A stretch of 64,000 bases of DNA from an uncultured Bacilli bacterium (lineage in GTDB: Bacteria > Bacillota_I > Bacilli_A > RF39 > UBA660). Position 1 is the stretch's first letter. Each line of letters opens with the position of its first letter. Position numbers and translations under genes: made by a program. Below are positions 8,438 to 43,101 of this stretch, piece after piece. The notes beneath the pieces are model-generated. The model saw only the letters and a list, made by a program, of their open reading frames with translations. It did no database searches and was not told where the DNA came from. The stretch lies in NCBI GenBank assembly GCA_944358455.1, contig CALVRE010000042.1:299-64298 (forward strand), written 5' to 3'.

Positions 8438-9544
8438 TTATAAATACCAAAGCTTCTTATGATTTTTACGAACTTCTTTGATAATGCCACCACCTAAACA
8501 TTCTTCACCTAAATAGAAGACACAAGCTTGTCCTGGCGTAACTGATTTTACTCCGTTCTGATAATGGACGACGATATTACCATCATCTAGATATTCTAAT
8601 TCTACTTCATTATCTTTTTGACGGTAACGAAATTTCGCACTACATTGTGTTGGATATTCAGTGCTGATCCAATTCACTTGATCAACTAAACATTCAGTAC
8701 TAATCAAATACGGATTATCCTCACCATAAGCTACATACAAAATATTCTTTTCCAAATCTTTTCCAACGACAAAAAGCTTATCGGTACTACCTCCAATGTT
8801 AAGACCTTTTCGTTGTCCTATCGTATAATACATAAGACCGATGTGTTCTCCCAATACTTCGTTTGTTTCAATATTGACGATTTGTCCAGGTATGTTAGGT
8901 AAATAGTTTTTCAAAAAATCTTTAAAATGACGTTCTCCAATAAAGCAAATACCAGTTGAGTCTTTTTTCTTAGCTGTCGTTAAATGATTTTGTTCTGCTA
9001 TTTTACGAACTTCCGATTTTTCCAAATCGCCGATTGGAAAGAGAACATTCTCTAATTGTTTTTTTGATAGTTGAGACAAAAAGTAAGTTTGATCTTTATT
9101 ACGATCGACACCTCGCAATAATTTGCCATTTTTAATTCGTGCATAATGTCCGGTTGCAATATAATCGGCACCTAGTTTTTCTGCCTCTTTTACAAACATA
9201 TCAAATTTAATATACTTGTTACACATGATGTCAGGATTAGGTGTTCTACCGGCTTTTAATTCATCTAAAAAATAAGTAAATACATAATCCCAATATTCTT
9301 TTACAAAATCGACACGATGAAGAGGAATACCAATTTCTTCGCATACTTTTAAAGTGTCATTATAATCTTGTTCTTGTGGACATATTTGATTATTTAAGGT
9401 AGGATTACCCAAGATGTCATTATTTAAAGAGGCATCCCAGTTACGCATGAAAAGGCCTATGACATCATAGCCCTGTTCTTTCAAAAGAATGGCAGCAACA
9501 CTACTATCCACTCCTCCACTCATTCCAATTACTACTTTTTTCAT
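8438..9544 (-). CDS. mnmA: tRNA 2-thiouridylase MnmA
   Basis: The PP-loop IGMSGGVDSS is present and the length is typical for MnmA. The listed MICM extension is a GTG inside the RBS, so the ATG start was used. Confidence 0.9.
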   Translation of the reverse strand: MKKVVIGMSGGVDSSVAAILLKEQGYDVIGLFMRNWDASLNNDILGNPTLNNQICPQEQDYNDTLKVCEEIGIPLHRVDFVKEYWDYVFTYFLDELKAGRTPNPDIMCNKYIKFDMFVKEAEKLGADYIATGHYARIKNGKLLRGVDRNKDQTYFLSQLSKKQLENVLFPIGDLEKSEVRKIAEQNHLTTAKKKDSTGICFIGERHFKDFLKNYLPNIPGQIVNIETNEVLGEHIGLMYYTIGQRKGLNIGGSTDKLFVVGKDLEKNILYVAYGEDNPYLISTECLVDQVNWISTEYPTQCSAKFRYRQKDNEVELEYLDDGNIVVHYQNGVKSVTPGQACVFYLGEECLGGGIIKEVRKNHKKLWYL

Positions 9545-9572
9545 GCAAATCACCTAGAAGTATTATACCACA

Positions 9573-10202
9573 TTATTTTAAAATTGGAACGATCTCTTTC
9601 AATATGGTGGGAACGACATAAATTTCCATTAATGTTGTAATCATTACACCAATAATTGAGAGTAATAATATAAAAGAGTATTTATGAACGATTTTTCTAA
9701 AATCAAACGGTTCTTTCTTCAACATCGACTTGATTATTTTGAGAGAGACCGTTAGAGAATAAAGCATTAAAACAATGTAGAGAATCATATTGATAACATG
9801 ATGCGGAAAAATATAGAAAAAGGCAACCAAACATCCTTTTAATTGGTAATTCATAATAATGGATGAGATCGAAAAACCTAGAATAAAGGCTTTGCTGAAG
9901 AACATGAATAAAGTAACCGGAATTCCAATCACGGAAATGCCAAGTAACCAAATGACCAATACATAAATCACATTAGCACCTAAACTACTACATAAACTAT
10001 TGATATAATCTAGTTTTCCTGTATCAATGTTAGTAATAAAAGTATCTAAATATTCCTTTAACATGTTCTGATCATTTTTACTTAAAATTACAACAAAGAT
10101 AGATCCGGCTAAGATTCCTGCTAACATAAGGCTTACTAAGAAAATAATCATTTTCTTATTGGCTTTCGCTTTGACTTTTAGTTTGTCCACTATCTTTTTC
10201 AT
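9573..10202 (-). CDS. spoIIM: Stage II sporulation protein M (SpoIIM, DUF95) family membrane protein
   Basis: A ~210-aa polytopic protein. LGISVIGIPVTLFMFFSKAFILGFS is similar to B. subtilis SpoIIM LGISVIGMPIILIMLFLKGVVVGF. Confidence 0.7.
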   Translation of the reverse strand: MKKIVDKLKVKAKANKKMIIFLVSLMLAGILAGSIFVVILSKNDQNMLKEYLDTFITNIDTGKLDYINSLCSSLGANVIYVLVIWLLGISVIGIPVTLFMFFSKAFILGFSISSIIMNYQLKGCLVAFFYIFPHHVINMILYIVLMLYSLTVSLKIIKSMLKKEPFDFRKIVHKYSFILLLSIIGVMITTLMEIYVVPTILKEIVPILK

Positions 10203-10291
10203 TCTTTCACCTCAATAAATACTATTAATTTTTATAAAAAATATTCCAAAAATAAATAAAATAGTATATAATCTTACTAGAGGTGTTTAAA

Positions 10292-10405
10292 ATGGCTAGC
10301 AAAAAAAAGAAAAAAGCGCAGAATACAGAACGAACTTTTGCCCTTGTTTGTGTTGGTATCATGTTATTTAGTGTCGTTGCTTCGATACTCGTTTATTTTA
10401 TATAA
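10292..10405 (+). CDS. Small membrane peptide (37 aa), hypothetical
   Basis: MASKKKKKAQNTERTFALVCVGIMLFSVVASILVYFI. It has the RBS AGGTG and a terminator hairpin directly downstream. It is absent from the ORF track because it is under 60 aa. Confidence 0.4.
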   Translation: MASKKKKKAQNTERTFALVCVGIMLFSVVASILVYFI

Positions 10406-10434
10406 AATACTTCAAAATAACGAAGTATTTTTAT
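10406..10434 (+). terminator. Rho-independent terminator
   Basis: AATACTTC-loop-GAAGTATT followed by TTTTT. A second hairpin, AGATGAG/CTCATCT plus T-run, lies at 10444-10468. Confidence 0.5.
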
Positions 10435-23206: not shown

Positions 23207-25114
23207 CTATACTTCTTGAATGGCAGTATACATATTAAACATTGGAATAACGATCGAAAGAATGATAATACCAACAACGACAGTTAAGAATAAAATCAAA
23301 ACTGGTTCGATAAATGTCTTAACACGAGTAACCGCATTCTTATGAAGATCCTGATAATACTCTGATACTTTCTTCATCATCTGTGGAAGTTCTCCTGTTC
23401 GTTCTCCTGTTACCAACATTTCATAAGCCGGCATTGGAAAGGCCCAATGATCTTTGAAGGCCGTTGATATCTTCTCACCTTTTGCAAGATTGGCAATCGT
23501 ATCCAATATTAACATTTTATAAATTTCATTATTCGTAATCTTATTTAAGATATCCATACTATCGGTAATGAAAACGTTGTGTTCCAATAAAGAAGCAAAA
23601 GTTTTCGTAAAAGTTGTAACTTCATTATAAATGATAATATTACCAAATATCGGTAAATGCATCAACAACCATTGTGTAGCTGTTCGAATCAATTTAACAT
23701 TATGATATAAATAAGCAAATACCCCAATTACAAGAGCAATAATAAGAATTACTAACCATAAATTATGTTGTAAGAAATCACTCAAATTCATAATGGCAAT
23801 CGTGATTCCTGGAATCTGTGCTGCATCCATACTTTCATATATTTCGACAAATTGTGGAATAACGTAGATCATAATGAAAGTAACAACAGCAATCGCTACT
23901 ACTAAGACAATCGAAGGATAAGTCATAGCCGTAATCATCTCTTTACGCGTTTTATCCATCTCTGTATAGTACTCTGCCATATCATCTAAGACTTCTGGTA
24001 GAGATCCTATCATTTCCGATGTCTTTATCATGTTAATAAGCAAAGCTGGAAAAGCTTTTCCTTGTTTTTCCATAGCGGTACTAAAGTTTTCTCCCATCGT
24101 AAGGTCGTAGATCATCAACTTAAAAATACGTTGATATGCCTTCGACTTAAACTGGCGAGATAAAATCTTGAGTGACTCAACTAAGGGAATACCAGCTTTG
24201 ATATATGTCGATAATTGTGTCAAGAAGAAAATAAGGTCTTTCGTCTTAACCTTCGTATGACTAGTTGCCGAACTTTGATGTAGGAAACGAATCCACTTAT
24301 CAGTTTTAATACTATATACTTCGTATCCTTCCGAAAGTAAAAAAGAATGAACCTCTACTTTCGAATATGCTTCAAAATAACCTTTGACAATTTTCCCATC
24401 GGGATCTTTCGCTTCGTATTCGTATAATAATTTGGTTGGACTTTTCTCCGCATCTTCTCCATCAAAATCGATTAATAAAACATTACGATTGATATCTTTA
24501 CGATTACGCTTTGCTTTTACAAACGATGAATTATTATACTTCTTCTTGATATTGGCAACCATTTTCTTTGGAAAAGCAATAATAGCAAGCAAAAAATCGT
24601 TGATGCGATCGCCAAACGTTTTTCTTTCAATCTTAACTTTTTCGTTGATATAAACATCATTTTCACGTTTTTGTTTTTCTCTTTTTTCAGCTAATTGACG
24701 TTCTTTTTCGAGACGACGTACTTCTTTTAATTTTTCCTCTTTTTCACGACGTGCTTCTGCTCTTATAGCAGCCTTTTCAGCATAGCGAACATATGCATTG
24801 TAAATAAAGATAAAAGGAACGGAAATTCCAAATAATGCATAATGTAAAAAGTGATAACAAATTCTTGATAATACGATAAAGCCTTTCACCGCATATTTCA
24901 AAATATATAAGAAAAATAAAACGATTGCTCGTATTCCTAATCCCACGTACTTCCCTAAAATAAAAATAAGGCTAACAATAAAATCAATTACGGTATAAAA
25001 AGTAAAGAAGGTTCCTAAACAAAAATATCGAATCAACATGATAGGTATTCTAAACAAGAAACGTACCATATGGTAGACCATTATGAAAGGATGAAAAAAT
25101 AGAGATTTCTTCAT
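23207..25114 (-). CDS. Type II secretion system F-family platform protein (PilC/ComGB-like) with a ~215-aa N-terminal extension (4 TM helices plus a K/E/R-rich coiled coil)
   Basis: The canonical GspF domains begin near LLYEYEAKDPDGKIVKG and continue with AGIPLVESL. The start was set at MKKSLFF with RBS AGGTG; the listed MFFA start is a GTG. Confidence 0.8.
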   Translation of the reverse strand: MKKSLFFHPFIMVYHMVRFLFRIPIMLIRYFCLGTFFTFYTVIDFIVSLIFILGKYVGLGIRAIVLFFLYILKYAVKGFIVLSRICYHFLHYALFGISVPFIFIYNAYVRYAEKAAIRAEARREKEEKLKEVRRLEKERQLAEKREKQKRENDVYINEKVKIERKTFGDRINDFLLAIIAFPKKMVANIKKKYNNSSFVKAKRNRKDINRNVLLIDFDGEDAEKSPTKLLYEYEAKDPDGKIVKGYFEAYSKVEVHSFLLSEGYEVYSIKTDKWIRFLHQSSATSHTKVKTKDLIFFLTQLSTYIKAGIPLVESLKILSRQFKSKAYQRIFKLMIYDLTMGENFSTAMEKQGKAFPALLINMIKTSEMIGSLPEVLDDMAEYYTEMDKTRKEMITAMTYPSIVLVVAIAVVTFIMIYVIPQFVEIYESMDAAQIPGITIAIMNLSDFLQHNLWLVILIIALVIGVFAYLYHNVKLIRTATQWLLMHLPIFGNIIIYNEVTTFTKTFASLLEHNVFITDSMDILNKITNNEIYKMLILDTIANLAKGEKISTAFKDHWAFPMPAYEMLVTGERTGELPQMMKKVSEYYQDLHKNAVTRVKTFIEPVLILFLTVVVGIIILSIVIPMFNMYTAIQEV

Positions 25115-25233
25115 TGCAAAAAACACCTACCCGTTCTTTCTATTCTTTATCATACACATTATAACATAATTTTCACTTTTGTAAAACATTTTTCAGGAAT
25201 TTCATATAATATTTTAGAAAGGAGTATACAAAC

Positions 25234-29175: not shown

Positions 29176-30120
29176 TTATAATTCAAAAATTGTATTTTTT
29201 ATAAATTTATAGTCTGTTTTATACTTAATTCCTCGTATCAAACGAAACATCGCTTCGTCTTTTGCTTTCGCTTCCAACATGATATCACAGTCTTGATTCG
29301 TAAATTTTATCTTTTCTAAAAAGGCTAAAAAAGAATCTAAATTGACATAATCATGATGACTACGAAACTCTTTCTTACTTTTAGGAGAAGAAAAATGAAT
29401 CTTGGGGACATAATTCGTGTCTTTCCAGGTTTGGAAAATCGCTTCGATATAATCCTCTACTTTCTCTCCGTGATTATTGCATAAATGATGATGATAATCC
29501 AACACCATCGGAATTTTCAACGTTTCACATACTTCCAACGTATCTTTCATCGTAAAAATTTTATCGTCATTTTCTAAAATAATATGTTTTTGTAAATAAG
29601 GATCAAGTTCTTTAAAACGTTTGATAAATCGTTTTTTACTCGCTTCCACTCCGAACGTGCCACTTCCAATATGCAGAATCATTTGTCCATCGATTTGCAT
29701 CGACTGAAACATAAATTCGTGATATTTGAGCATATTAATACTGGAGAGAACAACTTCAGAGCGAACACTGTTTAAAACACAAAATTGATCTGGATGAGTA
29801 TCGACGCGCATGTGATAACGTTTGATCAGTTTCCCAATTTTTTGCCACTCTTCCTGATAACGTTTTAAATCCAAAGTTACCTTTGGATGAGTCGCAAACG
29901 GAATAAGATTAGATGTCATTCGATAAAATTCAATTTCGTTTTTATAATTATAAAGAAGGATTTCTTTTAAATTACTAAAGTTAGATAAAATAATTTTTTC
30001 TAATTTTTCTTCTCTTTGACTAGGATTACAAGACTCATAATATGTATAAGTCATACTCGAAGACGAAGTTAAGGGTGCAAGTGTTAAAGGAATTGCTACA
30101 TAGCCTAATCTGATTTTCAT
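29176..30120 (-). CDS. uvsE: UV damage endonuclease (UvdE/UvsE)
   Basis: RLGYV, HPDQF, LENDDK and DYHHH motifs of the UvdE family. Confidence 0.8.
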   Translation of the reverse strand: MKIRLGYVAIPLTLAPLTSSSSMTYTYYESCNPSQREEKLEKIILSNFSNLKEILLYNYKNEIEFYRMTSNLIPFATHPKVTLDLKRYQEEWQKIGKLIKRYHMRVDTHPDQFCVLNSVRSEVVLSSINMLKYHEFMFQSMQIDGQMILHIGSGTFGVEASKKRFIKRFKELDPYLQKHIILENDDKIFTMKDTLEVCETLKIPMVLDYHHHLCNNHGEKVEDYIEAIFQTWKDTNYVPKIHFSSPKSKKEFRSHHDYVNLDSFLAFLEKIKFTNQDCDIMLEAKAKDEAMFRLIRGIKYKTDYKFIKNTIFEL

Positions 30121-30138
30121 ATTCTCACCACTTTTAGT

Positions 30139-30696
30139 ATGGATAGAAAGGAGGAAAACATGACATTAAAACAAGAAAAAATCATCGCTGTTATCGGAAC
30201 TTTTTTGCTGGCTTTTTTGTTTCATTTTCTGTATGAATGGTTTCCGAATACACTATGTTCCATTTTCTTTCCCGTCAACGAAAGTATTTGGGAACACATG
30301 AAATTATTATTTACACCAATTCTAACCTTCGGTATCGTGGAATTCTTGATTTTAAAATATCTTCATATCAAAACTCATAATTATTTTTTCTTTTTAACGA
30401 TTTTAGCTTTACTCAGTATCCCATTCTACCTTCTTTTTTATCTACCTATTTATTACATGATAGGAGAACAAATGTGGTTCAATATTGCTCTATTATTTCT
30501 CGTTATTTTACTCGTTCACATTGTTCATTATTTTCTCATTCAAAAAGATCTACACTTTTACTCCAATGTTTGGGCTGTCTTACTTGTCATAATCGGTTAT
30601 ATTATATTCGGATATCTTACCTATCAGCCAATCAAAAGTGATCTCTTTTTTGATCACTTAAACGAAAAATACGGTGTTAATACTTATCGTATATAA
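30139..30696 (+). CDS. Hypothetical polytopic membrane protein
   Basis: A 185-aa hydrophobic ORF with the RBS AGGAGG. Confidence 0.5.
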   Translation: MDRKEENMTLKQEKIIAVIGTFLLAFLFHFLYEWFPNTLCSIFFPVNESIWEHMKLLFTPILTFGIVEFLILKYLHIKTHNYFFFLTILALLSIPFYLLFYLPIYYMIGEQMWFNIALLFLVILLVHIVHYFLIQKDLHFYSNVWAVLLVIIGYIIFGYLTYQPIKSDLFFDHLNEKYGVNTYRI

Positions 30697-30728
30697 CAAA
30701 AAAGGAAAGTTTTCACTTTCCTTTTTAT
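30696..30728. terminator. Bidirectional Rho-independent terminator
   Basis: AAAGGAAAGT-TTTC-ACTTTCCTTT with A- and T-runs on both sides. Confidence 0.55.
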
Positions 30729-30733
30729 CTAGT

Positions 30734-31939
30734 CTACGGTTCATATCCATACAAATCATACAATTCATCTAAAGCACATTGTACGGTTTCACAAGTTGTA
30801 TATCCTAAGCTATTGTCATATGCTGTGATTCTGGCATGTGGCGTTGCGACCATCGTAACTTCTACACTTTTACTACTAACATGTCCTGCTGCATCGGTTA
30901 CCCAGAAATAAACGGTTCCATTTTCTTTTGCCGTATAAGTATAAGTTTGTTCAGATGTTGTTGCGCTAACATTCGTAAAGGTATTCGGTTGATTATTTGT
31001 GGTTGTCCAAGCATAACCGGTAATACCACTTTGACTATCGATCACTTTTGCCGTTACAGTATTGGTTAATCCTAATGTTGTTTGAGCAGTAAGACTTGAA
31101 ATAACAGGTGGCGTTTTATCTAATTGATAATGCATACTATTAACATTCGAACAGATTTCTGTCGTATGTGGCGTTTTTGCATTATCTGTTGCGGTTATAC
31201 AAATTGCATATTTGCCATCATTTTGAATTGCTACAATAGTTCCACTTGGATCAGCATCAGTCGTTGGTGTGCAGGTGGAATTCGTGGTTAAGCAATATTT
31301 AAATTCGGTTATTGCTACATCATCTGTTGCGCTTATTTGAACATTAAAATTTTCCGTTTTCCAAATGCTATCCGGCTCTGGATTAAACGTGATTGTTGGT
31401 GGCGTAATATCGATATACACATCACCAAAAATAAAGTTAAACTCAGCTGAATATGTTGTAGAGGATGTACCATTATTCTTAATTACAAGTGTAATAGTAA
31501 CACTTTCACCTGCTGGTATTTCATCGATTCCCACTTTATAATCGGTAATTTCATATGTAATGTTACCATTTAATTCATCACGAATCTCTTCGATCAATTT
31601 ATTATTACTACTATTATTTGTAATCGTAATCTTATAAGTAATCGTAGCATTTTGATTTGGCAATACCCCTTTACTAACTAATAAATCATGACTATATTGA
31701 TAATTTCCGTTCTCATAAGCACCATTCGATAGAATTGGCCCTTCGACATTCGTAATTCGAATATCTCGATCTGGTCTTATTTCAGTATTTGTTCCAATAC
31801 TAAGAACTCGAGAAAGTAAAGAAAAACCAATGGTTAAACTAAATAAAAATAACAACAGCAGAAAAACAAGAACTACTTTTCTGGTTCTCGAAGAATAATA
31901 AAAAGAATCTTTCCACTTGTTTCTCTTATAATTTTTCAT
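30734..31939 (-). CDS. Secreted or surface Thr/Asn-rich protein with a SipW-cognate-like signal peptide and Ig-like repeats (TapA-like accessory candidate)
   Basis: A hydrophobic N-terminus is followed by FSLLSRVLSIGTNTE, a cleavage-region motif shared with the two TasA-like proteins. The start was set at MKNYK, with RBS GGGTG. Confidence 0.6.
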   Translation of the reverse strand: MKNYKRNKWKDSFYYSSRTRKVVLVFLLLLFLFSLTIGFSLLSRVLSIGTNTEIRPDRDIRITNVEGPILSNGAYENGNYQYSHDLLVSKGVLPNQNATITYKITITNNSSNNKLIEEIRDELNGNITYEITDYKVGIDEIPAGESVTITLVIKNNGTSSTTYSAEFNFIFGDVYIDITPPTITFNPEPDSIWKTENFNVQISATDDVAITEFKYCLTTNSTCTPTTDADPSGTIVAIQNDGKYAICITATDNAKTPHTTEICSNVNSMHYQLDKTPPVISSLTAQTTLGLTNTVTAKVIDSQSGITGYAWTTTNNQPNTFTNVSATTSEQTYTYTAKENGTVYFWVTDAAGHVSSKSVEVTMVATPHARITAYDNSLGYTTCETVQCALDELYDLYGYEP

Positions 31940-32039
31940 TTCCAACACCCGATTATTATGTATCTTTACTATTCATATTTTACCTTATTTTTCCATTTTT
32001 ATCAACACCAGATGACATAAAAAGTACATTTCTATAAAA

Positions 32040-32069
32040 TAAAAAGAAAGTAACTTTCACTTTCTTTTT
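32040..32069 (-). terminator. Rho-independent terminator after the bitopic-protein gene
   Basis: AAAGAAAGT-loop-ACTTTCTTT followed by a T-run. Its sequence is similar to the hairpin at 30700. Confidence 0.5.
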
Positions 32070-33081
32070 ATTTTAATATATATTGATAGATAATATTTTC
32101 ATCTACAATTATAAAGATACTTGAATTTTTCTTTCGGTAATGTAAAATTGGTTTTTCGACATTTTCTCGTGCATCCATCAACTCTTCGAAAGATGATACT
32201 ACCACTACCTGCTTTCCTTCTGTAGATGGAAGTACTTTTGTTTCTACAATCGCACGATCATAATGTTTTTGAATTTTATCTAATTCGATTCGATAATGTC
32301 CTTTCGCTTTCTTCTCTTCTTCGATCATGCGAACAAGAGCAAGAACAACGAAGATTTCTAGTAAAATTCCTACCCAGAAAAAGAAGAAAAAGACAATATT
32401 CGTTATTTCTAATTGATTTTCCTCTTCCACAATAGAAGATTGATTGATATCTTTATATTGCATTCCTACTTGAATCGTCTGTTCTGTCAAAGGGATCTTC
32501 ATCTCTAAAGATTCATTTTTAATAACAGGATTTTTAAATTCGTCATATCCTGTCGTAATATGGATATTCAACTTTACTTGTAAATAACTATCTAAAGATA
32601 AGGCATAATCACTTTTAAATTCACTAATAATTTGATTATATTGATCATAATCAATTTGTACATCATCTGATATCGTAAAACTTTGTGCATGATCAACCTG
32701 TTGTTGTTGTAAATCTTTTAAAACATAATCCTTTTGATATAGTATTTGACTTTCATTTCCAGGCTCATGAGCAATGACAGTACCCGTAATATCATAAGAA
32801 TAATTCATATCGACATTCTTATCGGTATAATATGTATAATGAAAATTTACTGCAATGTAATCAATCAAACTTGCAATATATTGTCGTCCGGCCGGAAGAT
32901 AATCCTCCTCGAAATAATCGTTTTCCTTTAAATAGACATAATAGTCAATTTTACTTTGTTCTTGTACTTCTAATTGTCTTATATCAGCAAAACTAATACT
33001 TTCTTTCAAACAAAATATCGATACGATCAATACAGCTATAAATAAGAGAATACATGACCCTTTCTTAATAATTTTCTTCAT
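32068..33081 (-). CDS. Bitopic membrane protein (N-terminal signal-anchor, large extracytoplasmic domain, C-terminal TM helix plus ~90-aa cytoplasmic tail); hypothetical
   Basis: The start was set at MKKIIKK with RBS GGAGG. It is translationally close to the upstream peptidase gene. Confidence 0.55.
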   Translation of the reverse strand: MKKIIKKGSCILLFIAVLIVSIFCLKESISFADIRQLEVQEQSKIDYYVYLKENDYFEEDYLPAGRQYIASLIDYIAVNFHYTYYTDKNVDMNYSYDITGTVIAHEPGNESQILYQKDYVLKDLQQQQVDHAQSFTISDDVQIDYDQYNQIISEFKSDYALSLDSYLQVKLNIHITTGYDEFKNPVIKNESLEMKIPLTEQTIQVGMQYKDINQSSIVEEENQLEITNIVFFFFFWVGILLEIFVVLALVRMIEEEKKAKGHYRIELDKIQKHYDRAIVETKVLPSTEGKQVVVVSSFEELMDARENVEKPILHYRKKNSSIFIIVDENIIYQYILK

Positions 33082-33085
33082 ATGT

Positions 33086-34225
33086 TTACCTCCATTCACT
33101 TAACCAGACGCTTGGATATCCAATCGCAGGAATTCTCAATCTTGCAACGCCTATAATATCTTTTTCATAAATGACCATTGCATCTATATCGTCGTTATTA
33201 TCACCTTTGGTTCGATAAGTATAATTTCCATCTTGAGAGTCATTTTTTTGGACAACGCGGTGAACAATAACCCGATTATCATTACGATACACCAAAACAT
33301 CTCCCACTTCTATTTCATCTTTCTCTTTATCTGTCAGCTTATCTACAATAACGACATCGCCTCTTTTAATGTTCGGACTCATCGATGGCGATACGATCGC
33401 TAAAAAGTAATATTTAAAGAAACCACTCGTTAAAAGAATGACCACTATGACCAATATCCCAAAACATGCATTCACAATCATTCTTCCAGGATGCTTTGAT
33501 TCCCTAACAAAAAACATTCGTTCTTTCTTCGTCGCCCTATAAATTAATAAACAAACGATAAAAGGAAAAACTATCTCTAATATACTGGTTAAATAATTTC
33601 CTAAGTTCGGATAAATCGGCACCATATAAATTGGCAATTCCGTCAACAAGCGAAACCAAATGACCGATTTCCAAGAAATGTGATACATTAAAAAAGTAAA
33701 CGCTATATTTTTAGCAATACTAGGTAAAATAATTAAACTAATATTATCGATGATAGCATTGATATCATGTCCAAGTGGAAATGCTCCTCTAGCATCAAAT
33801 AAAATCAAAAATAATACTAATAAAGTTAACACAATCTTTTCGTGAGATCCATTCTTATATTTCGATACCACTTCATAACGTAATAACTCTTCTGCAACAA
33901 TCACTAATATTACAGGCAAAATATTTTGAAGTATAGTCAGAAAATCCAAACTATAAACGGTTCTAGCATATCCAGTAAAAATACCTAACACATAGACAAT
34001 GACAAAATAACATATCACATAACTAATCAAACTAAAGTTAATATCTAACGTTTTTTCCGACTTATCTTTTTCAAAGCCTTTTAGCAACACTATGACAATA
34101 AAGAAGATCGTCAAAAAAACAAATCCTAACAGTTGATTCGAAATAAAACGAAACAAAAAATTATTGCAAAGAATCAAAATAATTGCAATCAATTCAATTA
34201 AAACGATTTTTTGGTACTCCCTCAT
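33086..34225 (-). CDS. Fusion protein: CPBP (CAAX/Abi-type) intramembrane metalloprotease domain plus C-terminal type I signal peptidase (S26, SipW-like)
   Basis: The N-terminal ~270 aa is polytopic with EELLRYE (EExxxR) and FLMYH (FxxxH) CPBP motifs. The C-terminus has SPSMSP (catalytic Ser box), RGDVV, HRVV and GDNN S26 boxes. Confidence 0.7.
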   Translation of the reverse strand: MREYQKIVLIELIAIILILCNNFLFRFISNQLLGFVFLTIFFIVIVLLKGFEKDKSEKTLDINFSLISYVICYFVIVYVLGIFTGYARTVYSLDFLTILQNILPVILVIVAEELLRYEVVSKYKNGSHEKIVLTLLVLFLILFDARGAFPLGHDINAIIDNISLIILPSIAKNIAFTFLMYHISWKSVIWFRLLTELPIYMVPIYPNLGNYLTSILEIVFPFIVCLLIYRATKKERMFFVRESKHPGRMIVNACFGILVIVVILLTSGFFKYYFLAIVSPSMSPNIKRGDVVIVDKLTDKEKDEIEVGDVLVYRNDNRVIVHRVVQKNDSQDGNYTYRTKGDNNDDIDAMVIYEKDIIGVARLRIPAIGYPSVWLSEWR

Positions 34226-34337
34226 TCACATCACCAATCAATATTGTCGTTACTATATTTTATATTATAATATATTCTTTTGTTTTTATCAAGAATATCT
34301 ATCACAAAATTTACTTTTTGCAATATTAAAACAAAAA

Positions 34338-34357
34338 AAGAGAGACATAACTCTCTT
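34338..34357. terminator. Bidirectional terminator after TasA-like paralog B
   Basis: AAGAGAGA-CATAA-CTCTCTT with A- and T-runs. Confidence 0.5.
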
Positions 34358-34359
34358 TT

Positions 34360-34938
34360 TTAAGCTTGAACATAAGTGATTGTTGCACCAGAACCATTAA
34401 CTGTTACATCAGCCGTAGGTAACTGAGTTGCAGTATCTTTATAGGTAACTGTTAATTTAACTGTTTTGGTTTCGTCAGCATTTAACGTATCATTTTGAGC
34501 AATAGCAGTTCCGCCATCTACATATGTTAATGTATACTCATATGAAGTTTCTACTAAAGTTTCATCTGCGTCTTTAGTGTCTCCACTTCCAGTAAATGTA
34601 GGCGTCTTAGGAGAATAAGTACCAATCTTGGCATTGATTTCTCCATCATTTACGATATCGAACGTATAACTAACAGAATCTCCTGGAGCTTTTAACACAA
34701 CACCAGTTAAAGTTACAGTAGTATTATCTAAGCTAATACTACCTTTGTCAGCAGTACCAGTTACTTCTCCTGCACTGGCATTTTCAAAGTGAACATTCCA
34801 GCTCGCATTTAAAGATTGTACAGTAGAATCTGTATTAATATTTAATACTTGTGATAATGCTGCATAACCTAGTGTTACTCCTCCTATTGCGATAATCAAC
34901 GCAGCGATCGCTATTGTTCTTAGTGTTTTGCTTTCCAT
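34360..34938 (-). CDS. TasA/camelysin (M73)-like secreted protein, paralog B
   Basis: The signal peptide ends in GYAALSQVLNINTD. VVLKAPGDSVSYTFDIVNDGEI resembles the TasA motif LKPGD..F.F.N.GSL. RBS is GGAGGA. Confidence 0.65.
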   Translation of the reverse strand: MESKTLRTIAIAALIIAIGGVTLGYAALSQVLNINTDSTVQSLNASWNVHFENASAGEVTGTADKGSISLDNTTVTLTGVVLKAPGDSVSYTFDIVNDGEINAKIGTYSPKTPTFTGSGDTKDADETLVETSYEYTLTYVDGGTAIAQNDTLNADETKTVKLTVTYKDTATQLPTADVTVNGSGATITYVQA

Positions 34939-35175
34939 ATAAACTATTTCCTCCTCACTTCTAATTTTTATAACACCACTACTATGTTATACAATCTCAT
35001 TATAAAAAAATTTTTGATAAATTTCAATACTTTTTTTACTTTTTTCGACATATTATGCATTTCTATGGTCAATAAAGCTTTAAAAATCAACGGAAATTGA
35101 TATCCAACAAAAAATTCAAAATGCTACCAAAAGTAAAAAAATTGAGCAAAATTTGAATCATAGGAAATCTTTCTT

Positions 35176-35210
35176 ATAAAAAAGAAAGAGAACCACCATT
35201 CACTCTTTCT
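35176..35210 (-). terminator. Rho-independent terminator after TasA-like paralog A
   Basis: AGAAAGAG-loop-CTCTTTCT with a T-run on the minus strand. Confidence 0.55.
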
Positions 35211-35229
35211 CTATGTGTATTACATTTAT

Positions 35230-35805
35230 TTATGCTTGTACATACGTGATAATGACACCTGATCCGTCGATATTAACATCGTTTGTAGGTTCGAAATCAC
35301 CTTTTAGTTGATATGTGATCGTCAGCTTTAAAGTTTTTCTTTCGCCCTCATTTAAAACGTCTGACACGGTAAGTGGTGTTCCATCTTCATACGTTAATAT
35401 ATACTGATAGGCATCTCTTACGATTGCTTCATCTACTTCCGATGTCTCACCAAAACCTGTGAAACTTGGATTCTTATAATCGATATTTCCGATTTTCGCA
35501 TCCAAATTTCCATCATTTACGACTTCAAATGTATATGTAACAGAATCTCCAACATTTTTTAGAATAACGCCGTTTAACGTTATGTTAGTGGCATTTAATG
35601 TTAAGATTCCTTTCTCTGCATTTCCCGTAATGATTCCATTGCTTGCGTTTTCAAAATGAATATTCCACTTTGTATCTGGCGTTTGAACATAAGAATTTGC
35701 CTCCACTTTCAATATCTGAGAAAGTGCGGCATAACTGATTGACAATGCTCCAATGGCAAGTATGAGTGCTGATACAGCAATTGTTCTTAATGTGTTCTTT
35801 TTCAT
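35230..35805 (-). CDS. TasA/camelysin (M73)-like secreted protein, paralog A
   Basis: The signal peptide ends in SYAALSQILKVEAN. VILKNVGDSVTYTFEVVNDGNL is the same TasA-like motif. The start was set at MKKNT with RBS AGGAGGG; the gene is monocistronic with its own terminator. Confidence 0.65.
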   Translation of the reverse strand: MKKNTLRTIAVSALILAIGALSISYAALSQILKVEANSYVQTPDTKWNIHFENASNGIITGNAEKGILTLNATNITLNGVILKNVGDSVTYTFEVVNDGNLDAKIGNIDYKNPSFTGFGETSEVDEAIVRDAYQYILTYEDGTPLTVSDVLNEGERKTLKLTITYQLKGDFEPTNDVNIDGSGVIITYVQA

Positions 35806-35865
35806 ATACCCTCCTAATTCTAATTTAATTGTAACCTCTTTGACGATGTTTTTCAAGATTCATTT

Positions 35866-35903
35866 CAAAAAAACACAAAAAAAGGGAACTAATACTAGTT
35901 CCC
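35866..35903 (-). terminator. Rho-independent terminator, candidate end of the comE transcript
   Basis: GGGAACTAGTATTAGTTCCC followed by TTTTTTTGTGTTTTTTT on the minus strand. Confidence 0.5.
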
Positions 35904-36214
35904 AATCTATATAAACGCTACCAGTAGCGTCTACCTAAAGATAAGTTCAAATGAATGATTTCATTCGTACTTATCTTCTTTGAAACGATGTCTCGTTTTT
36001 TACATATACATATGAAGAGATGTAACTACTCATAATATATCCATTTCTTCTGATAATATTCCTAGTATCATTTCTTCTCAATATAATATATGATCATTCA
36101 AACATTCTGTGATTGATAAAAAAGATAATATCATAACAATGCATATATACTTCCAACATCACCACAATATTCAATCTATTGATTCTACCAATCATGATCC
36201 ATCCTTTCTTCTCT

Positions 36215-38299
36215 TTATGGTATACAAGTTTTCATTTCTAATTTTTTATGTTTAATTTTAAACATCATACTACCGTTTAAATCAGTTCTATAAATCATAG
36301 AGTTAGAGAGATTTTCTAGTACTTTATCATGAGGATGACCATACCAATTGTTTTTTCCTACTGATATAATGGAATATTTTGGATGAATACTACTTATAAA
36401 TTCTTCACTGGAACTTGTCTTACTCCCGTGATGTCCCACTTTCAATATGTCTATATCCGTAAGATCATATTTTTTTAAAATATCCTCTTCTACCTCTATT
36501 CCTGCATCTCCCATGAATAGCATTTTAACTCCATTATAATCAAAATATAATACATTAGAATTATCATTTTCATTATCGTATAATTTGTGATTTAAAAAAT
36601 ATATCTTGTGCCCCTTTAAATTTAATTCTTTGATGTTTTGACAATACTCAATCCTTTTTTCGTCTAGTATTTTTATTAGTTCTTGTTCTAACTCGTTATA
36701 ACCATCTGGATTAAAAATTACTTTTTCGATCGGGAAATGGTTTACTAAATAAAACGCTTCCCCCATATGATCGAAATCGCCATGAGTGAAAAGAAGAAAA
36801 TCAAGTTTTTGAATTCCTCTCGACTTCAAATAAGGAATTAACGTATTTTTGCTGATATTGTAATCATAGTCTTCCAAATTCATTAAATTTCCCCCTGTAT
36901 CAATCAGAATATTTCCTCGATTATACGGAAGTTCCATCAAGATCGCATCTCCTTGTCCTACATCTAATACGGTTACTACCACATAGTTGCGAAAATACGG
37001 CATCATATATAAAATAGCCAGTAAAACTGGTAATAATAGCATTCTTCTTTTTCGATAATGATAGATTCCAATGATGATCCATATCAAACTAGCGATTAAT
37101 ATACCTAAAAAGACAAACGATGGTTTCATAAAGGAAATCGTGAATAAAGAATAAGAGGATAATCGTTGCGATAGCGTTTCTAAAATAGAAATTAACACGT
37201 GATAGATTTTTCCTAGTGGCGCAAATAACAAGACAAAAAAAGAAAGTGGGAATAATAAATAGGTCACGTATGGAACAAAAAACAAGTTATAAATAGGCGT
37301 TAGAAAAGTCAGTTCAAAATTATAAGTAAGAGAGATGGGAATCCCTGTCAAAAAGGCAAGCAGAGAAATCAACCATAATTTTCGAAAATATCCTTTTTGT
37401 TCTTTTAAATAACGATTGCCATAGATGAGTACAAACGATATAGTAAAACTATAAAGAAAACCCAAATGATATACATAATAAGGATTATAGAAAAGTAAAC
37501 AAGAAATAACGAACATCAACAAATAAATGGTGTCGATTTTTAAATGAACAATCTTTCGTAATGTCAAAAGATAAAATAATAAAAGTGCTCTTAAAATAGA
37601 GGGAGAAAAACCAGTTACGAATGAATAAAATAATAAAATGATACTAACGATTGCATAATTTCTCTTTTTGTCTTTCCAAAAGCGATTTAAAATGGCAAGA
37701 ATGGTCGTTGCCATAAACGTAATATGCATTCCGGAAACGGAAAATAGATGACTGATGCCATTATGCTGATAACTATCTAATACATCTTCCTTAATATCAC
37801 TGCTATCTCCTAATAATAGATATTTTAAATAATCGGCGTGTTCTTTGGTATCAAAATAATCATTGATTTTTCCTTTCCAATCGTAAAGTAACGAATGATT
37901 CTTGTTTACTAAACGAATATCGGTAGGTACTAGTTGATAATAAATTTTTTTACTCAATAAGTAGTTACGGTAATTAAATAACCCAAAGGTACGATTCGTA
38001 GATGGTAATTTCAAAGTTCCTTCCACTTCGATTTGATCTCCTACTTCATAATCGAATGGTTCATAGATTGTCATAATGACTTTTTCTTTTCCTTTTATTT
38101 CGACTGTCGTTCGATCTTCTTGATTTTTCAAGGATACGATCGTTCCGATTATTTTTATTTCTCCTTCGTGATAAGAAGAAAAAATGATTTTTCCTTTGAC
38201 CACCCAAAAAGAATATACGAATGAGACAAAAAGAAGAAAAAGATAAAATTTCTTAGATTGTAATATAATCTTTAAGTTTTTCAAATGTACTATCGCCAA
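36215..38299 (-). CDS. comEC: DNA internalization competence protein ComEC/Rec2 (with metallo-beta-lactamase domain)
   Basis: An N-terminal OB/DUF4131 region and polytopic competence domain are followed by a C-terminal MBL fold (VLDVGQGDAIL, HGDFDHMG). Confidence 0.9.
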   Translation of the reverse strand: MAIVHLKNLKIILQSKKFYLFLLFVSFVYSFWVVKGKIIFSSYHEGEIKIIGTIVSLKNQEDRTTVEIKGKEKVIMTIYEPFDYEVGDQIEVEGTLKLPSTNRTFGLFNYRNYLLSKKIYYQLVPTDIRLVNKNHSLLYDWKGKINDYFDTKEHADYLKYLLLGDSSDIKEDVLDSYQHNGISHLFSVSGMHITFMATTILAILNRFWKDKKRNYAIVSIILLFYSFVTGFSPSILRALLLFYLLTLRKIVHLKIDTIYLLMFVISCLLFYNPYYVYHLGFLYSFTISFVLIYGNRYLKEQKGYFRKLWLISLLAFLTGIPISLTYNFELTFLTPIYNLFFVPYVTYLLFPLSFFVLLFAPLGKIYHVLISILETLSQRLSSYSLFTISFMKPSFVFLGILIASLIWIIIGIYHYRKRRMLLLPVLLAILYMMPYFRNYVVVTVLDVGQGDAILMELPYNRGNILIDTGGNLMNLEDYDYNISKNTLIPYLKSRGIQKLDFLLFTHGDFDHMGEAFYLVNHFPIEKVIFNPDGYNELEQELIKILDEKRIEYCQNIKELNLKGHKIYFLNHKLYDNENDNSNVLYFDYNGVKMLFMGDAGIEVEEDILKKYDLTDIDILKVGHHGSKTSSSEEFISSIHPKYSIISVGKNNWYGHPHDKVLENLSNSMIYRTDLNGSMMFKIKHKKLEMKTCIP

Positions 38300-41172: not shown

Positions 41173-43101
41173 ATGAAAACAAGTTATAAAGTTATTTTAC
41201 TTATCGTTGTGGCTTGCTTAAGTTCAATCGCTATTTTCTATTTTACTGATCGTGCGAATCCCATTGCAGAAGAAGTCGATATCCTTGCCTATCAACAAGA
41301 GCTAGAACAGACTTTTTATCCTACTAAAGACGATACTTTTGAAAATCCGCGAATCATTGTCAATCCATATGGCAATTCTCCACTAACGGCTCTTATCATC
41401 TTCCAAACAAAAGATTTGACGGCTCCAACCGTAGTCATTCATGGAAAAGATGAAAATACAACTTATACCAAAAAATTCACACCTAGCAAAGAACATATTT
41501 TGCCTATTTATGGATTATATGCCAATACAGACAATACAATCGAACTCACCGTCAACAATGAAACCAAAACTTTGACGATTACAACCGATCCTCTTCCAGA
41601 TGATTTTATATTACCTACTAGTGTTACTGCAAATAAGCAGTTATTAGGAAATGACTTATATTTTGTAACCCCATCTAGTAGTGGTTATACGGCTGCTTAC
41701 GATGTAAATGGTGATGTTCGTTGGTATTTAACTGACATGTATTTATGGGATATTCAAACTTTAAACAATGGGAATTTATTACTCAGTACCAATCGTCTTA
41801 TCAATCCACCCTACTATACAACTGGTTTAATGGAAATGGATTTTATGGGAAAAGTATATTTTGAATATTCTCTTCCAGGTGGTTACCATCATGATGTCTT
41901 TGAAATGGAAAATGGTAATTTTTTGATTGCTAGCAATGATTTTGCAAGCGGAACAGTCGAAGATTATATCGTCGAGATGGATCGTGATACCGGAGAAATT
42001 ATCAAAACATTCGATCTCAAAGATATTTTAAATATGGAGGATGGAAAAAACGAAAATTGGAGCGAATATGATTGGTTCCATAATAATGCGGTATGGTACG
42101 ATAAAGCAACCAATTCCATCACTTTATCTGGTCGTCATCAAGATGCTGTCATCAATATCGATTACAATTCCGGAGAACTTAATTGGATCGTTGGTGATCC
42201 GACTAATTGGAGCGAAGAATATCAGAAATATTTCTTTACACCTATTGGAGACAATTTTGAATGGCAATGGAGCCAACATGCTTCCATGATCTTACCAAAT
42301 GGTAATTTGTTTGTTTTTGATAATGGTAATAATCGTTCTAAAATAGAAGAAGAATATATAGATGCTGTAAACAACTATAGTCGTGGTGTGATCTACCACC
42401 TCGATACCGTCAACCACACCATTTCTCAAGTATGGGAATATGGAAAAAATCGTGGTAGTGACTTTTATTCACCTTATATTTCTGATGTCGACTATCTGAG
42501 CGAAAACCATTATTTAATTCATTCTGGAGGAATATCTTATCAAGATGGTATCGTTCAAAATCAACCAGCAGGCCTTACTGATGTAGATAGATTGAATTCC
42601 ATTACCGTCGAAATTTTAAATGATGAAGTCATTTTTGAAATGCAATTACCAGGTAATTTCTATCGTGCTGAAAAAATGAACTTTTATTCCGATAGTGAAT
42701 TTAGTTTAGGTGAAGGAAAACGTTTGGGAAACATGGGAATTACTTCTACTTCTAACTCAAAACCAATTCTTATATTTGCCAAACAAATCGATGATCATTA
42801 TAACAGTTATAACATCAGTGTCAAAAAAGAAGTCGATCGTCTAGTAGTAACCGGTACTTTTCAAAAAGATGATAAAGTTCAAGTTATTTTAGATAATACG
42901 TTCGATAAACGTGTATACGATGTGCGTATTTCAGAAAGACCTTATACTGCAATGTGTATTGATATTTTCAATGAAGAAGAAGATACAAATGGTATTACCG
43001 TTACCAAATATATCAACGATTTAGGAATTACTGGAAAATATTATCTCTACATTAAAATTAATAATACGATCTATGATTTAAATCAATATATTCTTTATTA
43101 A
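41173..43101 (+). CDS. Arylsulfotransferase (ASST)-like beta-propeller protein, secreted or membrane-anchored
   Basis: An N-terminal TM helix is followed by repeated HNN..W, NGNL.V.DNGNN and similar blades. Confidence 0.45.
   Translation: MKTSYKVILLIVVACLSSIAIFYFTDRANPIAEEVDILAYQQELEQTFYPTKDDTFENPRIIVNPYGNSPLTALIIFQTKDLTAPTVVIHGKDENTTYTKKFTPSKEHILPIYGLYANTDNTIELTVNNETKTLTITTDPLPDDFILPTSVTANKQLLGNDLYFVTPSSSGYTAAYDVNGDVRWYLTDMYLWDIQTLNNGNLLLSTNRLINPPYYTTGLMEMDFMGKVYFEYSLPGGYHHDVFEMENGNFLIASNDFASGTVEDYIVEMDRDTGEIIKTFDLKDILNMEDGKNENWSEYDWFHNNAVWYDKATNSITLSGRHQDAVINIDYNSGELNWIVGDPTNWSEEYQKYFFTPIGDNFEWQWSQHASMILPNGNLFVFDNGNNRSKIEEEYIDAVNNYSRGVIYHLDTVNHTISQVWEYGKNRGSDFYSPYISDVDYLSENHYLIHSGGISYQDGIVQNQPAGLTDVDRLNSITVEILNDEVIFEMQLPGNFYRAEKMNFYSDSEFSLGEGKRLGNMGITSTSNSKPILIFAKQIDDHYNSYNISVKKEVDRLVVTGTFQKDDKVQVILDNTFDKRVYDVRISERPYTAMCIDIFNEEEDTNGITVTKYINDLGITGKYYLYIKINNTIYDLNQYILY

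Follow-up and report, generated by a model that had tools for sequence, protein, structure and literature searches.

A preprint of January 2026 (bioRxiv 10.64898/2026.01.04.697558) reported the structure of AbpX fibres, in which subunits are connected by donor-strand complementation, with calcium at the strand-groove interface. The AbpX protein of Pyrodictium abyssi corresponds to PDB entries 9sj2 and 9rhp, and AbpX loci were found in archaea, Bacillota and Chloroflexota. These loci encode minor subunits, tip proteins, a DUF5305 accessory protein and a 'structurally distinct' signal peptidase I (SPase I) with ten transmembrane (TM) helices, and that of Zestosphaera tikiterensis NZ3 was presented as an example (same preprint). 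The Zestosphaera locus codes for AbpX (202 residues), a minor subunit (229 residues), a tip protein (327 residues), an SPase (421 residues) and a DUF5305 protein (364 residues). Here we describe a related locus, found at positions 30734-35856 on the minus strand of a 64,000-nucleotide stretch of DNA from an uncultured Bacilli bacterium (contig CALVRE010000042.1), hereafter called the window. It encodes two small secreted proteins (subunits A and B), a fusion protein composed of a CAAX-protease-like (CPBP/Abi) membrane domain and an SPase I domain, a DUF5305 protein and a larger, tip/adhesin-like protein. Its gene set, homologies and conserved neighbourhood indicate that it probably encodes extracellular fibres of the TasA superfamily, related to AbpX, together with the machinery for their processing.

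The tapA-sipW-tasA operon of Bacillus subtilis similarly encodes a secreted beta-sandwich subunit beside a dedicated signal peptidase of the endoplasmic reticulum (ER) type (Ser/His). TasA and the window subunits share a PGD...F.(V/E)N.G block, and assembly by means of N-terminal donor strands, which is established for TasA, can be inferred for the latter. However, the window subunits show no match to Peptidase_M73 (PF12389), the locus has no TapA, SipW is devoid of a CPBP-fold domain, and the window locus includes a DUF5305 gene. The Tat-fimbriae of haloarchaea depend on a dedicated peptidase, TafD, for the processing of their fibre subunit, and TafD is accompanied by the DUF5305 protein TafG (PMC11821415). 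The tafi loci (TafA/C/E; PDB 9p0a) resemble that of the window in that donor-strand subunits are encoded together with a dedicated SPase I and a DUF5305 partner. In contrast, Tafi subunits use the Tat pathway, whereas the window proteins lack twin-arginine motifs, and TafD has four TM helices, an N-terminal catalytic domain and no CPBP-fold domain.

Gene set and superfamily placement

The genes of the locus are as follows.

35230..35805, minus strand: subunit A, precursor of 191 residues, mature protein of 165 residues with an isoelectric point (pI) of 4.29; ATG start at 35805, preceded by a GGAGGG ribosome-binding site
34360..34938, minus strand: subunit B, precursor of 192 residues, mature protein of 166 residues with a pI of 4.07; ATG start at 34938, preceded by a GAGGAGG ribosome-binding site
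33521..34225, minus strand: residues 1-235 of the fusion protein, 8-TM CPBP/Abi (CAAX-protease-like) fold domain; ATG start of the fusion gene at 34225
33086..33490, minus strand: residues 246-379 of the fusion protein, ninth TM helix and extracytoplasmic SPase I domain
32068..33081, minus strand: DUF5305 protein of 337 residues, putative signal-peptidase accessory subunit; ATG start at 33081, with GGAGG 7 nucleotides upstream and the stop codon of the fusion gene 4 nucleotides before it
30734..31939, minus strand: tip/adhesin-like large subunit of 401 residues; ATG start at 31939, alternative GTG start at 31948 (404 residues)

An initial annotation of the window, made from its sequence, had proposed a TasA/camelysin-like secreted-fibre locus of five minus-strand genes bounded by terminators. 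The five co-oriented open reading frames (ORFs) were confirmed over 30734-35856, and the terminators do fold (see below). The two small genes had been described as paralogous, each monocistronic with a strong ribosome-binding site and its own terminator, which is borne out by their products (53% identity, E 5e-73), by the ribosome-binding sites listed above and by the hairpins that follow each gene.

The window locus has the composition of AbpX loci, as it combines a multi-TM SPase I and a DUF5305 protein with a major subunit, a minor one and a larger tip-like one. The initial annotation had not been able to match it to a described system, but this gene set has been known since the January 2026 preprint, and the window locus is a divergent member rather than a new system. 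Its peptidase is homologous to that of the Zestosphaera abpX locus over nearly its whole length, membrane domain included (residues 39-369, E 3e-21). This match came from a genome scan with the fusion protein, based on an alignment of 13 closer sequences. The subunits are linked to AbpX by profiles and share its acidic character and low pI, and an amphipathic N-terminal strand directly follows their predicted cleavage site as in AbpX. Nevertheless, several features set the window locus apart. Its donor strand starts with A-L-S-Q instead of the x-W-S-E of AbpX, with Leu replacing the 'Trp clamp' and Gln the calcium-binding Glu. Only 9 TM helices are predicted for the peptidase, the tenth, C-terminal one being absent, and the locus has no S-layer homology (SLH) or LPXTG anchor and no cyclic di-GMP (c-di-GMP) or two-component genes nearby. 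Finally, the host is a low-GC uncultured Bacillota, and the sequence similarity with AbpX is detectable only with profiles.

The subunits match no Pfam or NCBIfam family above threshold. A word-indexed search retrieved only 49 relatives, all without a name, while an exhaustive profile search yielded 8,868 cluster representatives at E<=1e-3, 5,458 of them at E<=1e-10. The subunit family is thus very large and unannotated, and it has no Pfam entry. Given these 8,868 cluster representatives, the >200 full-length homologues of the 379-residue fusion protein and an adjacency conserved in dozens of genomes, the five ORFs are, as judged by homology, real genes and not chance reading frames.

For profile comparisons we used A1, which represents the window subunit family, and A4, built from the AbpX-like proteins of Clostridia and Zestosphaera. 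In hhalign analyses, A1 aligned with A4 with a probability of 98.2% (E 3.7e-14) and with Zestosphaera tikiterensis AbpX with a probability of 88.5% over 144 columns. Compared with PDB sequences, A4 retrieved AbpX (9sj2, E 5e-15; 9rhp, 9e-9) and TasA (5of1 and 8aur, about 5e-5, with 4e-5 for 5of1). The initial annotation had related the small proteins to the TasA/CalY (M73) family on account of the motif VVLKAPGDSVSYTFDIVNDGEIN. The motif is present and constitutes the best-conserved block of the subunit family, and it can be aligned with its counterpart in a genuine Peptidase_M73 protein. Membership of M73 itself is not upheld: no match of the subunits to PF12389 was found at E<=1, whereas control TasA-like ORFs from two other loci (L077 and L074) scored 2.3e-87 and 9.8e-35, and only a 35-column PGD...N.G block of A1 aligns with a genuine M73 protein (hhalign probability 45.6%). 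Because of the profile links to AbpX and TasA, which are the stronger evidence, and of the more modest fold matches described below, the small proteins are best placed in the TasA superfamily of donor-strand fibres (TasA, AbpX, AbpA, Tafi, 0406 threads and CanA), nearest to the AbpX clade and outside of the TasA/CalY family. The branch to which they belong represents a divergent, very large and unannotated part of the AbpX-type TasA-superfamily loci.

The fused signal peptidase and its membrane domain

The C-terminal domain of the fusion protein matches TIGR02228, the model for SPase I of the ER/archaeal type, over residues 257-375 (80.6 bits for a cutoff of 51.85, E 1.1e-22), and its closest sequence relatives in the PDB are human SEC11A and SEC11C (E about 4e-18). 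S281, H322, R323, D342 and D348 are invariant in 55 homologues. The catalytic residues, which are found within SGSMEP, VHRV and KGDNN blocks that align with SEC11C, are of the Ser/His and not of the Lys type. A dedicated SipW-type (Ser/His) peptidase, as proposed initially, is thus supported, with its Ser281 and His322 fully retained. Nevertheless, the score obtained with the SipW equivalog model NF046067 (63.6 bits) is well below the cutoff of 190, and the enzyme is therefore not a SipW orthologue.

The AlphaFold2 model of the fusion protein (predicted local distance difference test, pLDDT, 90.3) shows eight N-terminal TM helices followed by a ninth that anchors the catalytic domain. The N-terminal domain adopts the 8-TM Rce1-like fold, and its best structural match is SpdC, a non-catalytic member of that family. 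No sequence family was matched by residues 1-240 of the window protein or of any of the 55 homologues.

In the initial annotation the fusion protein was considered a dual protease. The fusion itself and the CPBP-type fold of its membrane domain were confirmed, but the second protease was not. CPBP proteases are defined by the motifs EExxxR, FxxxH and HxxxN/D (PMC12260438). If the domain were proteolytically active within the membrane, it might complement the signal peptidase by removing the signal anchors left after cleavage, in the manner of a signal-peptide peptidase, or by introducing another cut into the subunits or a regulator. Such a role could draw on E113 and R116, which are invariant and located on TM4 where CPBP motif 1 sits, and on other conserved polar residues in or near membrane helices, namely K122 (95%), D144 (89%) and N173 (87%). 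However, the spacing of the former two is wrong, ExxR instead of EExxxR with a single conserved Glu. The family alignment shows no conserved His anywhere in residues 1-255, which leaves no FxxxH or HxxxN/D motif, and none of the 55 family members matches PF02517 at E<=1. The CAAX-like proteins with degenerate motifs SpdC, LnsB and SpbR are documented as non-proteolytic (PMC12260438). We thus regard a second active protease as unlikely. With no conserved His, a degenerate ExxR and no PF02517 match, the domain looks like the non-catalytic SpdC, LnsB and SpbR proteins, and by analogy with them it is most likely a built-in, non-catalytic membrane scaffold or gate for the peptidase.

There is a precedent for a degenerate CAAX-like protein that binds a type I signal peptidase, the SpbR-SpsB pair of Staphylococcus aureus (PMC12260438). 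Like the domain of the window protein, SpdC/LyrA (PDB 6u0o) and SpbR of S. aureus have degenerate catalytic motifs. They differ from it in that the window domain is covalently fused to its peptidase and that the latter is of the ER/archaeal type and not of the P-type. In addition, SpbR inhibits cleavage (PMC12260438), while the window domain might rather serve substrate docking or activation. Our literature searches for signal peptidases with CPBP or CAAX domains in a TasA context found no paper that describes such a fusion, and in the text of the January 2026 preprint (bioRxiv 10.64898/2026.01.04.697558) 'CPBP' does not occur and 'Abi' is found only inside ordinary words such as 'ability'. 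The CAAX-like fold of the extra membrane domain thus appears to be unreported in the literature searched.

The gene downstream codes for the DUF5305 protein, which matches PF17231 over the full length of the profile (positions 1-217 of 217; 66 bits for a cutoff of 29). A bitopic protein with a large extracytoplasmic domain and a cytoplasmic tail had been predicted here, and hydropathy analysis agrees with that description: an extracytoplasmic domain is found between two TM segments (about 8-40 and 229-261, in the numbering of a GTG-start ORF) and is followed by a cytoplasmic C-terminal domain. The start codon of the gene lies 4 nucleotides past the stop codon of the fusion gene, which implies translational coupling. 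A search of PDB sequences with the DUF5305 profile gave only a spurious match with tryptophanase (E 0.034).

In the January 2026 preprint, DUF5305 proteins were likened to the accessory subunits of the eukaryotic signal peptidase complex (SPC) (bioRxiv 10.64898/2026.01.04.697558). The SPC (SEC11A/C and SPCS1-3; PDB 7p2p/7p2q) shares with the window system a catalytic subunit accompanied by membrane-embedded accessory modules that have luminal or extracytoplasmic as well as cytoplasmic parts. Unlike the window system, the SPC has no CPBP-fold subunit; the DUF5305 protein has no detectable sequence relative among solved structures, and the window system appears to be dedicated to one substrate family.

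Subunits, tip-like protein and the proposed fibre

Both small proteins have N-terminal signal anchors (residues 1-26 in subunit A), with cleavage predicted at SYA|ALSQ in subunit A and GYA|ALSQVLNINT in subunit B. Of 303 family members, 89% have Ala and 10% have Ser at position -1 of the predicted site. The family alignment contains three conserved elements: an N-terminal signal anchor that ends in ...G-Y-A-A-L-S-Q-x-L-x-I-N-G-x-A-x-V, the block PGDSVSYTFDIVNxGxIxAKI, which corresponds to the motif of the initial annotation, and a C-terminal Y-x-Q. Asp and Glu represent 13.9% (A) and 12.7% (B) of the mature proteins. We rejected the possibility that these are lipoproteins, as they have no lipobox Cys and no Cys residue in their mature parts, and that they are type IV or competence pseudopilins, as they have no class III signal motif.

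The AlphaFold2 model of the subunit B monomer (mean pLDDT 87.9) has a beta-sandwich core with values > 90, and residues 27-47, the donor-strand segment just past the predicted cleavage site, are unstructured in it. The N-terminal segment of AbpX is likewise described as unstructured in the monomer model (bioRxiv 10.64898/2026.01.04.697558). In a Foldseek search of the PDB, the top match was AbpA (probability 0.99), and TasA was found with a probability of 0.87. The core appears to resemble archaeal thread, AbpA, Tafi and TasA subunits, which is compatible with the structural kinship with TasA anticipated by the initial annotation. These resemblances are modest, with non-fibre immunoglobulin (Ig)-like domains obtaining similar scores; no match reached E<=1e-3, and the AbpX entries were not among the 50 matches listed.

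Two traits of the AbpX clade are present in the window locus: the acidic mature protein (for the clade, a pI of about 4 and about 15% Asp+Glu) and the gene set made up of a multi-TM SPase I, DUF5305, a minor subunit and a tip. Two others, the aromatic residue at mature position 2 ('Trp clamp') and the acidic residue at position 4, are both missing. Position 2 is Leu in subunits A and B and in the tip-like protein. In 303 clade sequences sampled near the window's proteins, it is occupied by Leu (50%), Phe (25%), Met (11%), Tyr (6%) or Trp (4%). Position 4 is Gln in A and B and Arg in the tip-like protein; the clade has Gln (45%), Thr (22%), Glu (10%), Ser (10%) or Asp (3%), and is thus acidic at that position in only about 13% of these sequences. 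Without an acid at this position, the calcium site is likely to be altered or missing. Across related loci the start of the donor strand forms a graded series, from A|MWSE in the archaeon to A|YWTD in Clostridia, A|LFSE in several metagenome-assembled genomes (MAGs) labelled Bacilli, Mollicutes or Muribaculaceae, and A|ALSQ in the window. Hydrophobic residues are found at mature positions 2, 6 and 8, in the same register as W2, L6 and L8 of AbpX.

The tip-like protein has a signal anchor of about 40 residues with a predicted cleavage site at GFS|LLSRVLSIGT, and a module homologous to the small subunits spans residues from about 20 to 162 (hhalign probability 94.5%). Its C-terminal part is rich in Thr, Ser and Asn and Ig/PKD-like, with weak matches to PKD and DUF11. 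The Ig-like surface protein of the initial annotation is thus recovered, with a subunit-like N-terminal module in addition. The protein ends in a Cys-containing motif, ...YDNSLGYTTCETVQCALDELYDLYGYEP (30737-30830), which matched no family; its mature form has 6 Cys, compared with none in the small subunits. Only six relatives were found for this fast-evolving protein.

The core segment of the subunit beta-sandwich also occurs elsewhere. The giant proteins P0170 (4825 residues) and P0173 (4658 residues) contain about 34-35 tandem copies of it, with a repeat unit that corresponds to profile positions of about 76-163. The subunit domain thus serves as a repeat unit in very large surface proteins as well.

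We propose the following model. The two acidic beta-sandwich subunits and the larger tip/adhesin-like subunit would be exported by the Sec pathway with N-terminal signal anchors. The S281/H322 peptidase would cut the precursors past a small residue, at ...G/S-Y/F-A/S | A/L-L-S-Q/R..., yielding mature proteins that start with A-L-S-Q in the subunits and with L-L-S-R in the tip. Cleavage would release an amphipathic N-terminal strand, hydrophobic at mature positions 2, 6 and 8, which would enter the groove of the next subunit by donor-strand complementation and thereby build the fibre. The tip-like protein would join it through the same strand and display its Ig-like domains. The 8-TM CPBP/Abi-fold domain would most likely provide a membrane scaffold without catalytic function, on which the substrate is docked or gated, and the DUF5305 protein, whose translation is coupled to that of the peptidase, would be an accessory subunit of the latter.

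Several points weigh against this reading. Profile A1 alone matched no PDB sequence even at E<=10, and the link to AbpX and TasA therefore needed the intermediate profile A4. We infer donor-strand complementation from homology only. The locus includes no regulator and no cell-wall anchor: the tip-like protein has no LPXTG or SLH motif. As for the membrane domain, its putative scaffold role is derived from missing motifs and from analogy, and E113, R116, K122, D144 and N173 could form an unconventional active site.

Alternatively, the small proteins might not polymerize at all and instead be monomeric adhesins, coat proteins or other surface or secreted beta-sandwich proteins that simply depend on a signal peptidase of their own, with no fibre being formed. 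The modest fold matches, which many non-fibre Ig-like domains equal, and the missing aromatic-2 and acidic-4 signature are compatible with that possibility, and the about 35 tandem repeats of the core domain in P0170 and P0173 represent a non-fibre use of it. We nevertheless find it quite unlikely. No other part of the family is as conserved as the strand directly past the cleavage site, which retains its hydrophobic register at positions 2, 6 and 8, is common to the small subunits and the large tip-like proteins, and is unstructured in the monomer model. Moreover, the profile link to AbpX and TasA covers both strand and core, and loci with several paralogous subunits and a single large one are typical of fibre systems. 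A sortase-type Gram-positive pilus locus whose peptidase homologue is a SipA-like chaperone and not an enzyme is hardly credible, with Ser281, His322 and Asp342 invariant unlike in non-catalytic SipA-type homologues, a peptidase domain of the SEC11/archaeal type by sequence, and neither a sortase-family match nor an LPXTG motif among the five locus proteins.

Distribution, genomic setting and significance of the cassette

The initial annotation had suggested a search for CPBP-SPase I (S26) fusions next to M73-like genes. Among the 64 loci with a long peptidase returned by the genome scan, small subunits are present in 53, as one to five genes just upstream of the peptidase gene, and a DUF5305 gene directly follows the latter in 58. 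A large subunit-like protein was found in 18. Many of the 64 loci are truncated by contig ends. In contrast, DUF5305 is absent from all 12 loci with a short SipW-like peptidase, two of which include genuine Peptidase_M73 genes. A close relative (L082, 58% peptidase identity) harbours three subunit genes, the peptidase and DUF5305 genes and a tip gene coding for 398 residues, adjoining rplI-dnaB. The presence of the whole cassette in this different chromosomal context indicates that its genes travel together.

Most hosts of related loci carry the label of uncultured Bacilli, Mollicutes, Tenericutes or Clostridia, and the names of many MAGs refer to gut samples of humans, mice, goats, deer, rabbits or chickens. 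A Bacilli MAG from goat jejunum carries two copies of the module on one contig (L020, 3724-12191), which comprise long peptidases at 5680-6822 and at 9279-10421, a pair of DUF5305 genes, several subunits and a tip-like protein of 580 residues. A cassette of the Bacillota type was also found on contigs labelled Bacteroides, Bacteroidaceae or Muribaculaceae (L002, L010, L015, L029, L031, L032 and L039), and on one labelled Saccharibacteria (L076). The Bacteroides-type and Saccharibacteria labels may reflect mis-binning and not true hosts. Near the L082 cassette we found a gene for SpoIIR (PF09551; 11030-11548), which suggests that these uncultured Bacilli form spores or had spore-forming ancestors.

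The transcription signals of the window locus are as follows.

35884..35903, minus strand: terminator upstream of subunit A, 8-bp stem and T-run, -14.4 kcal/mol
35828..35856, minus strand: promoter-like site of subunit A, TTGAAA-17-TACAAT, 10/12, consensus match only
35176..35212, minus strand: terminator past subunit A, -10.2 kcal/mol, followed by a U-tract
34999..35027, minus strand: promoter-like site of subunit B, TTGAAA-17-TATAAT, 11/12
34334..34361, minus strand: terminator past subunit B, -11.8 kcal/mol
34264..34292, minus strand: promoter-like site of the peptidase-DUF5305 operon, TTGATA-17-TATAAT, 11/12
32038..32072, minus strand: terminator past the DUF5305 gene, -13.5 kcal/mol
31977..32005, minus strand: promoter-like site of the tip-like gene, TTGATA-17-TAAAAT
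30699..30726, minus strand: terminator past the tip-like gene, closing the locus, -17.6 kcal/mol

Hairpins with U-tracts are thus predicted by folding at five places (about -10 to -18 kcal/mol), which defines four transcription units: subunit A, subunit B, fusion protein plus DUF5305, and tip. The first terminator closes the upstream, comEC-side unit and represents the upper boundary of the locus. Sigma-70-like hexamers rated as good precede the subunit B, fusion and tip-like genes. An Rfam scan of 30000-36400 gave no match, indicating that this region contains no riboswitch and no c-di-GMP element.

The flanking DNA is an ordinary low-GC (about 32%) Bacillota chromosome, with comEA-comEC on one side of the locus, uvdE-dnaG-rpoD on the other, and genes for MutS, SMC and FtsW/RodA also in its surroundings. 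About 310 bp (35904-36214) separate the comEC stop codon from the terminator at 35884-35903, and this segment contains no convincing ORF and no Rfam match. At the other end, a gene convergent with the locus codes for a polytopic DUF6512 membrane protein (30139-30696, plus strand; PF20122, E 6e-15). It is probably unrelated to the locus, since it is absent from the L082 cassette. Farther away, an ORF of 639 residues (23207-25126, minus strand) matches the type II secretion system protein F domain (PF00482) in two stretches and may be part of a competence-pilus or type IV pilus operon apart from the fibre locus. A few kb from the locus, 41173-43101 (plus strand) codes for an arylsulfotransferase (ASST, PF05935, E 2.6e-100) with an N-terminal Ig-like domain.

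The locus reveals a very large, unannotated superfamily branch, with thousands of protein clusters, in uncultured Bacilli, the sampled loci coming mostly from gut MAGs, at a time when donor-strand fibres of the TasA-like type are increasingly recognized as a matrix scaffold common to bacteria and archaea. It also adds two points to the published description of AbpX loci. One is that the calcium-binding donor-strand signature is replaced in this branch, and a different assembly trigger is therefore predicted. The other is the CAAX-protease (CPBP/Abi) fold, with degenerate motifs, of the peptidase's extra membrane domain. This fold connects these systems with recent work in which a CAAX-like pseudo-enzyme was shown to regulate a signal peptidase. 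Much more tentatively, the CPBP pseudo-protease, the SEC11-type domain and DUF5305 might form a prokaryotic, substrate-dedicated signal-peptidase complex whose CAAX-like scaffold selects or gates signal-anchored subunits, and the Leu2/Gln4 clade might build calcium-independent donor-strand fibres that make up a major unrecognized surface matrix of uncultured gut Bacilli. In that case, the complex would be the equivalent of the SpbR-SpsB pair of S. aureus, but fused and activating.

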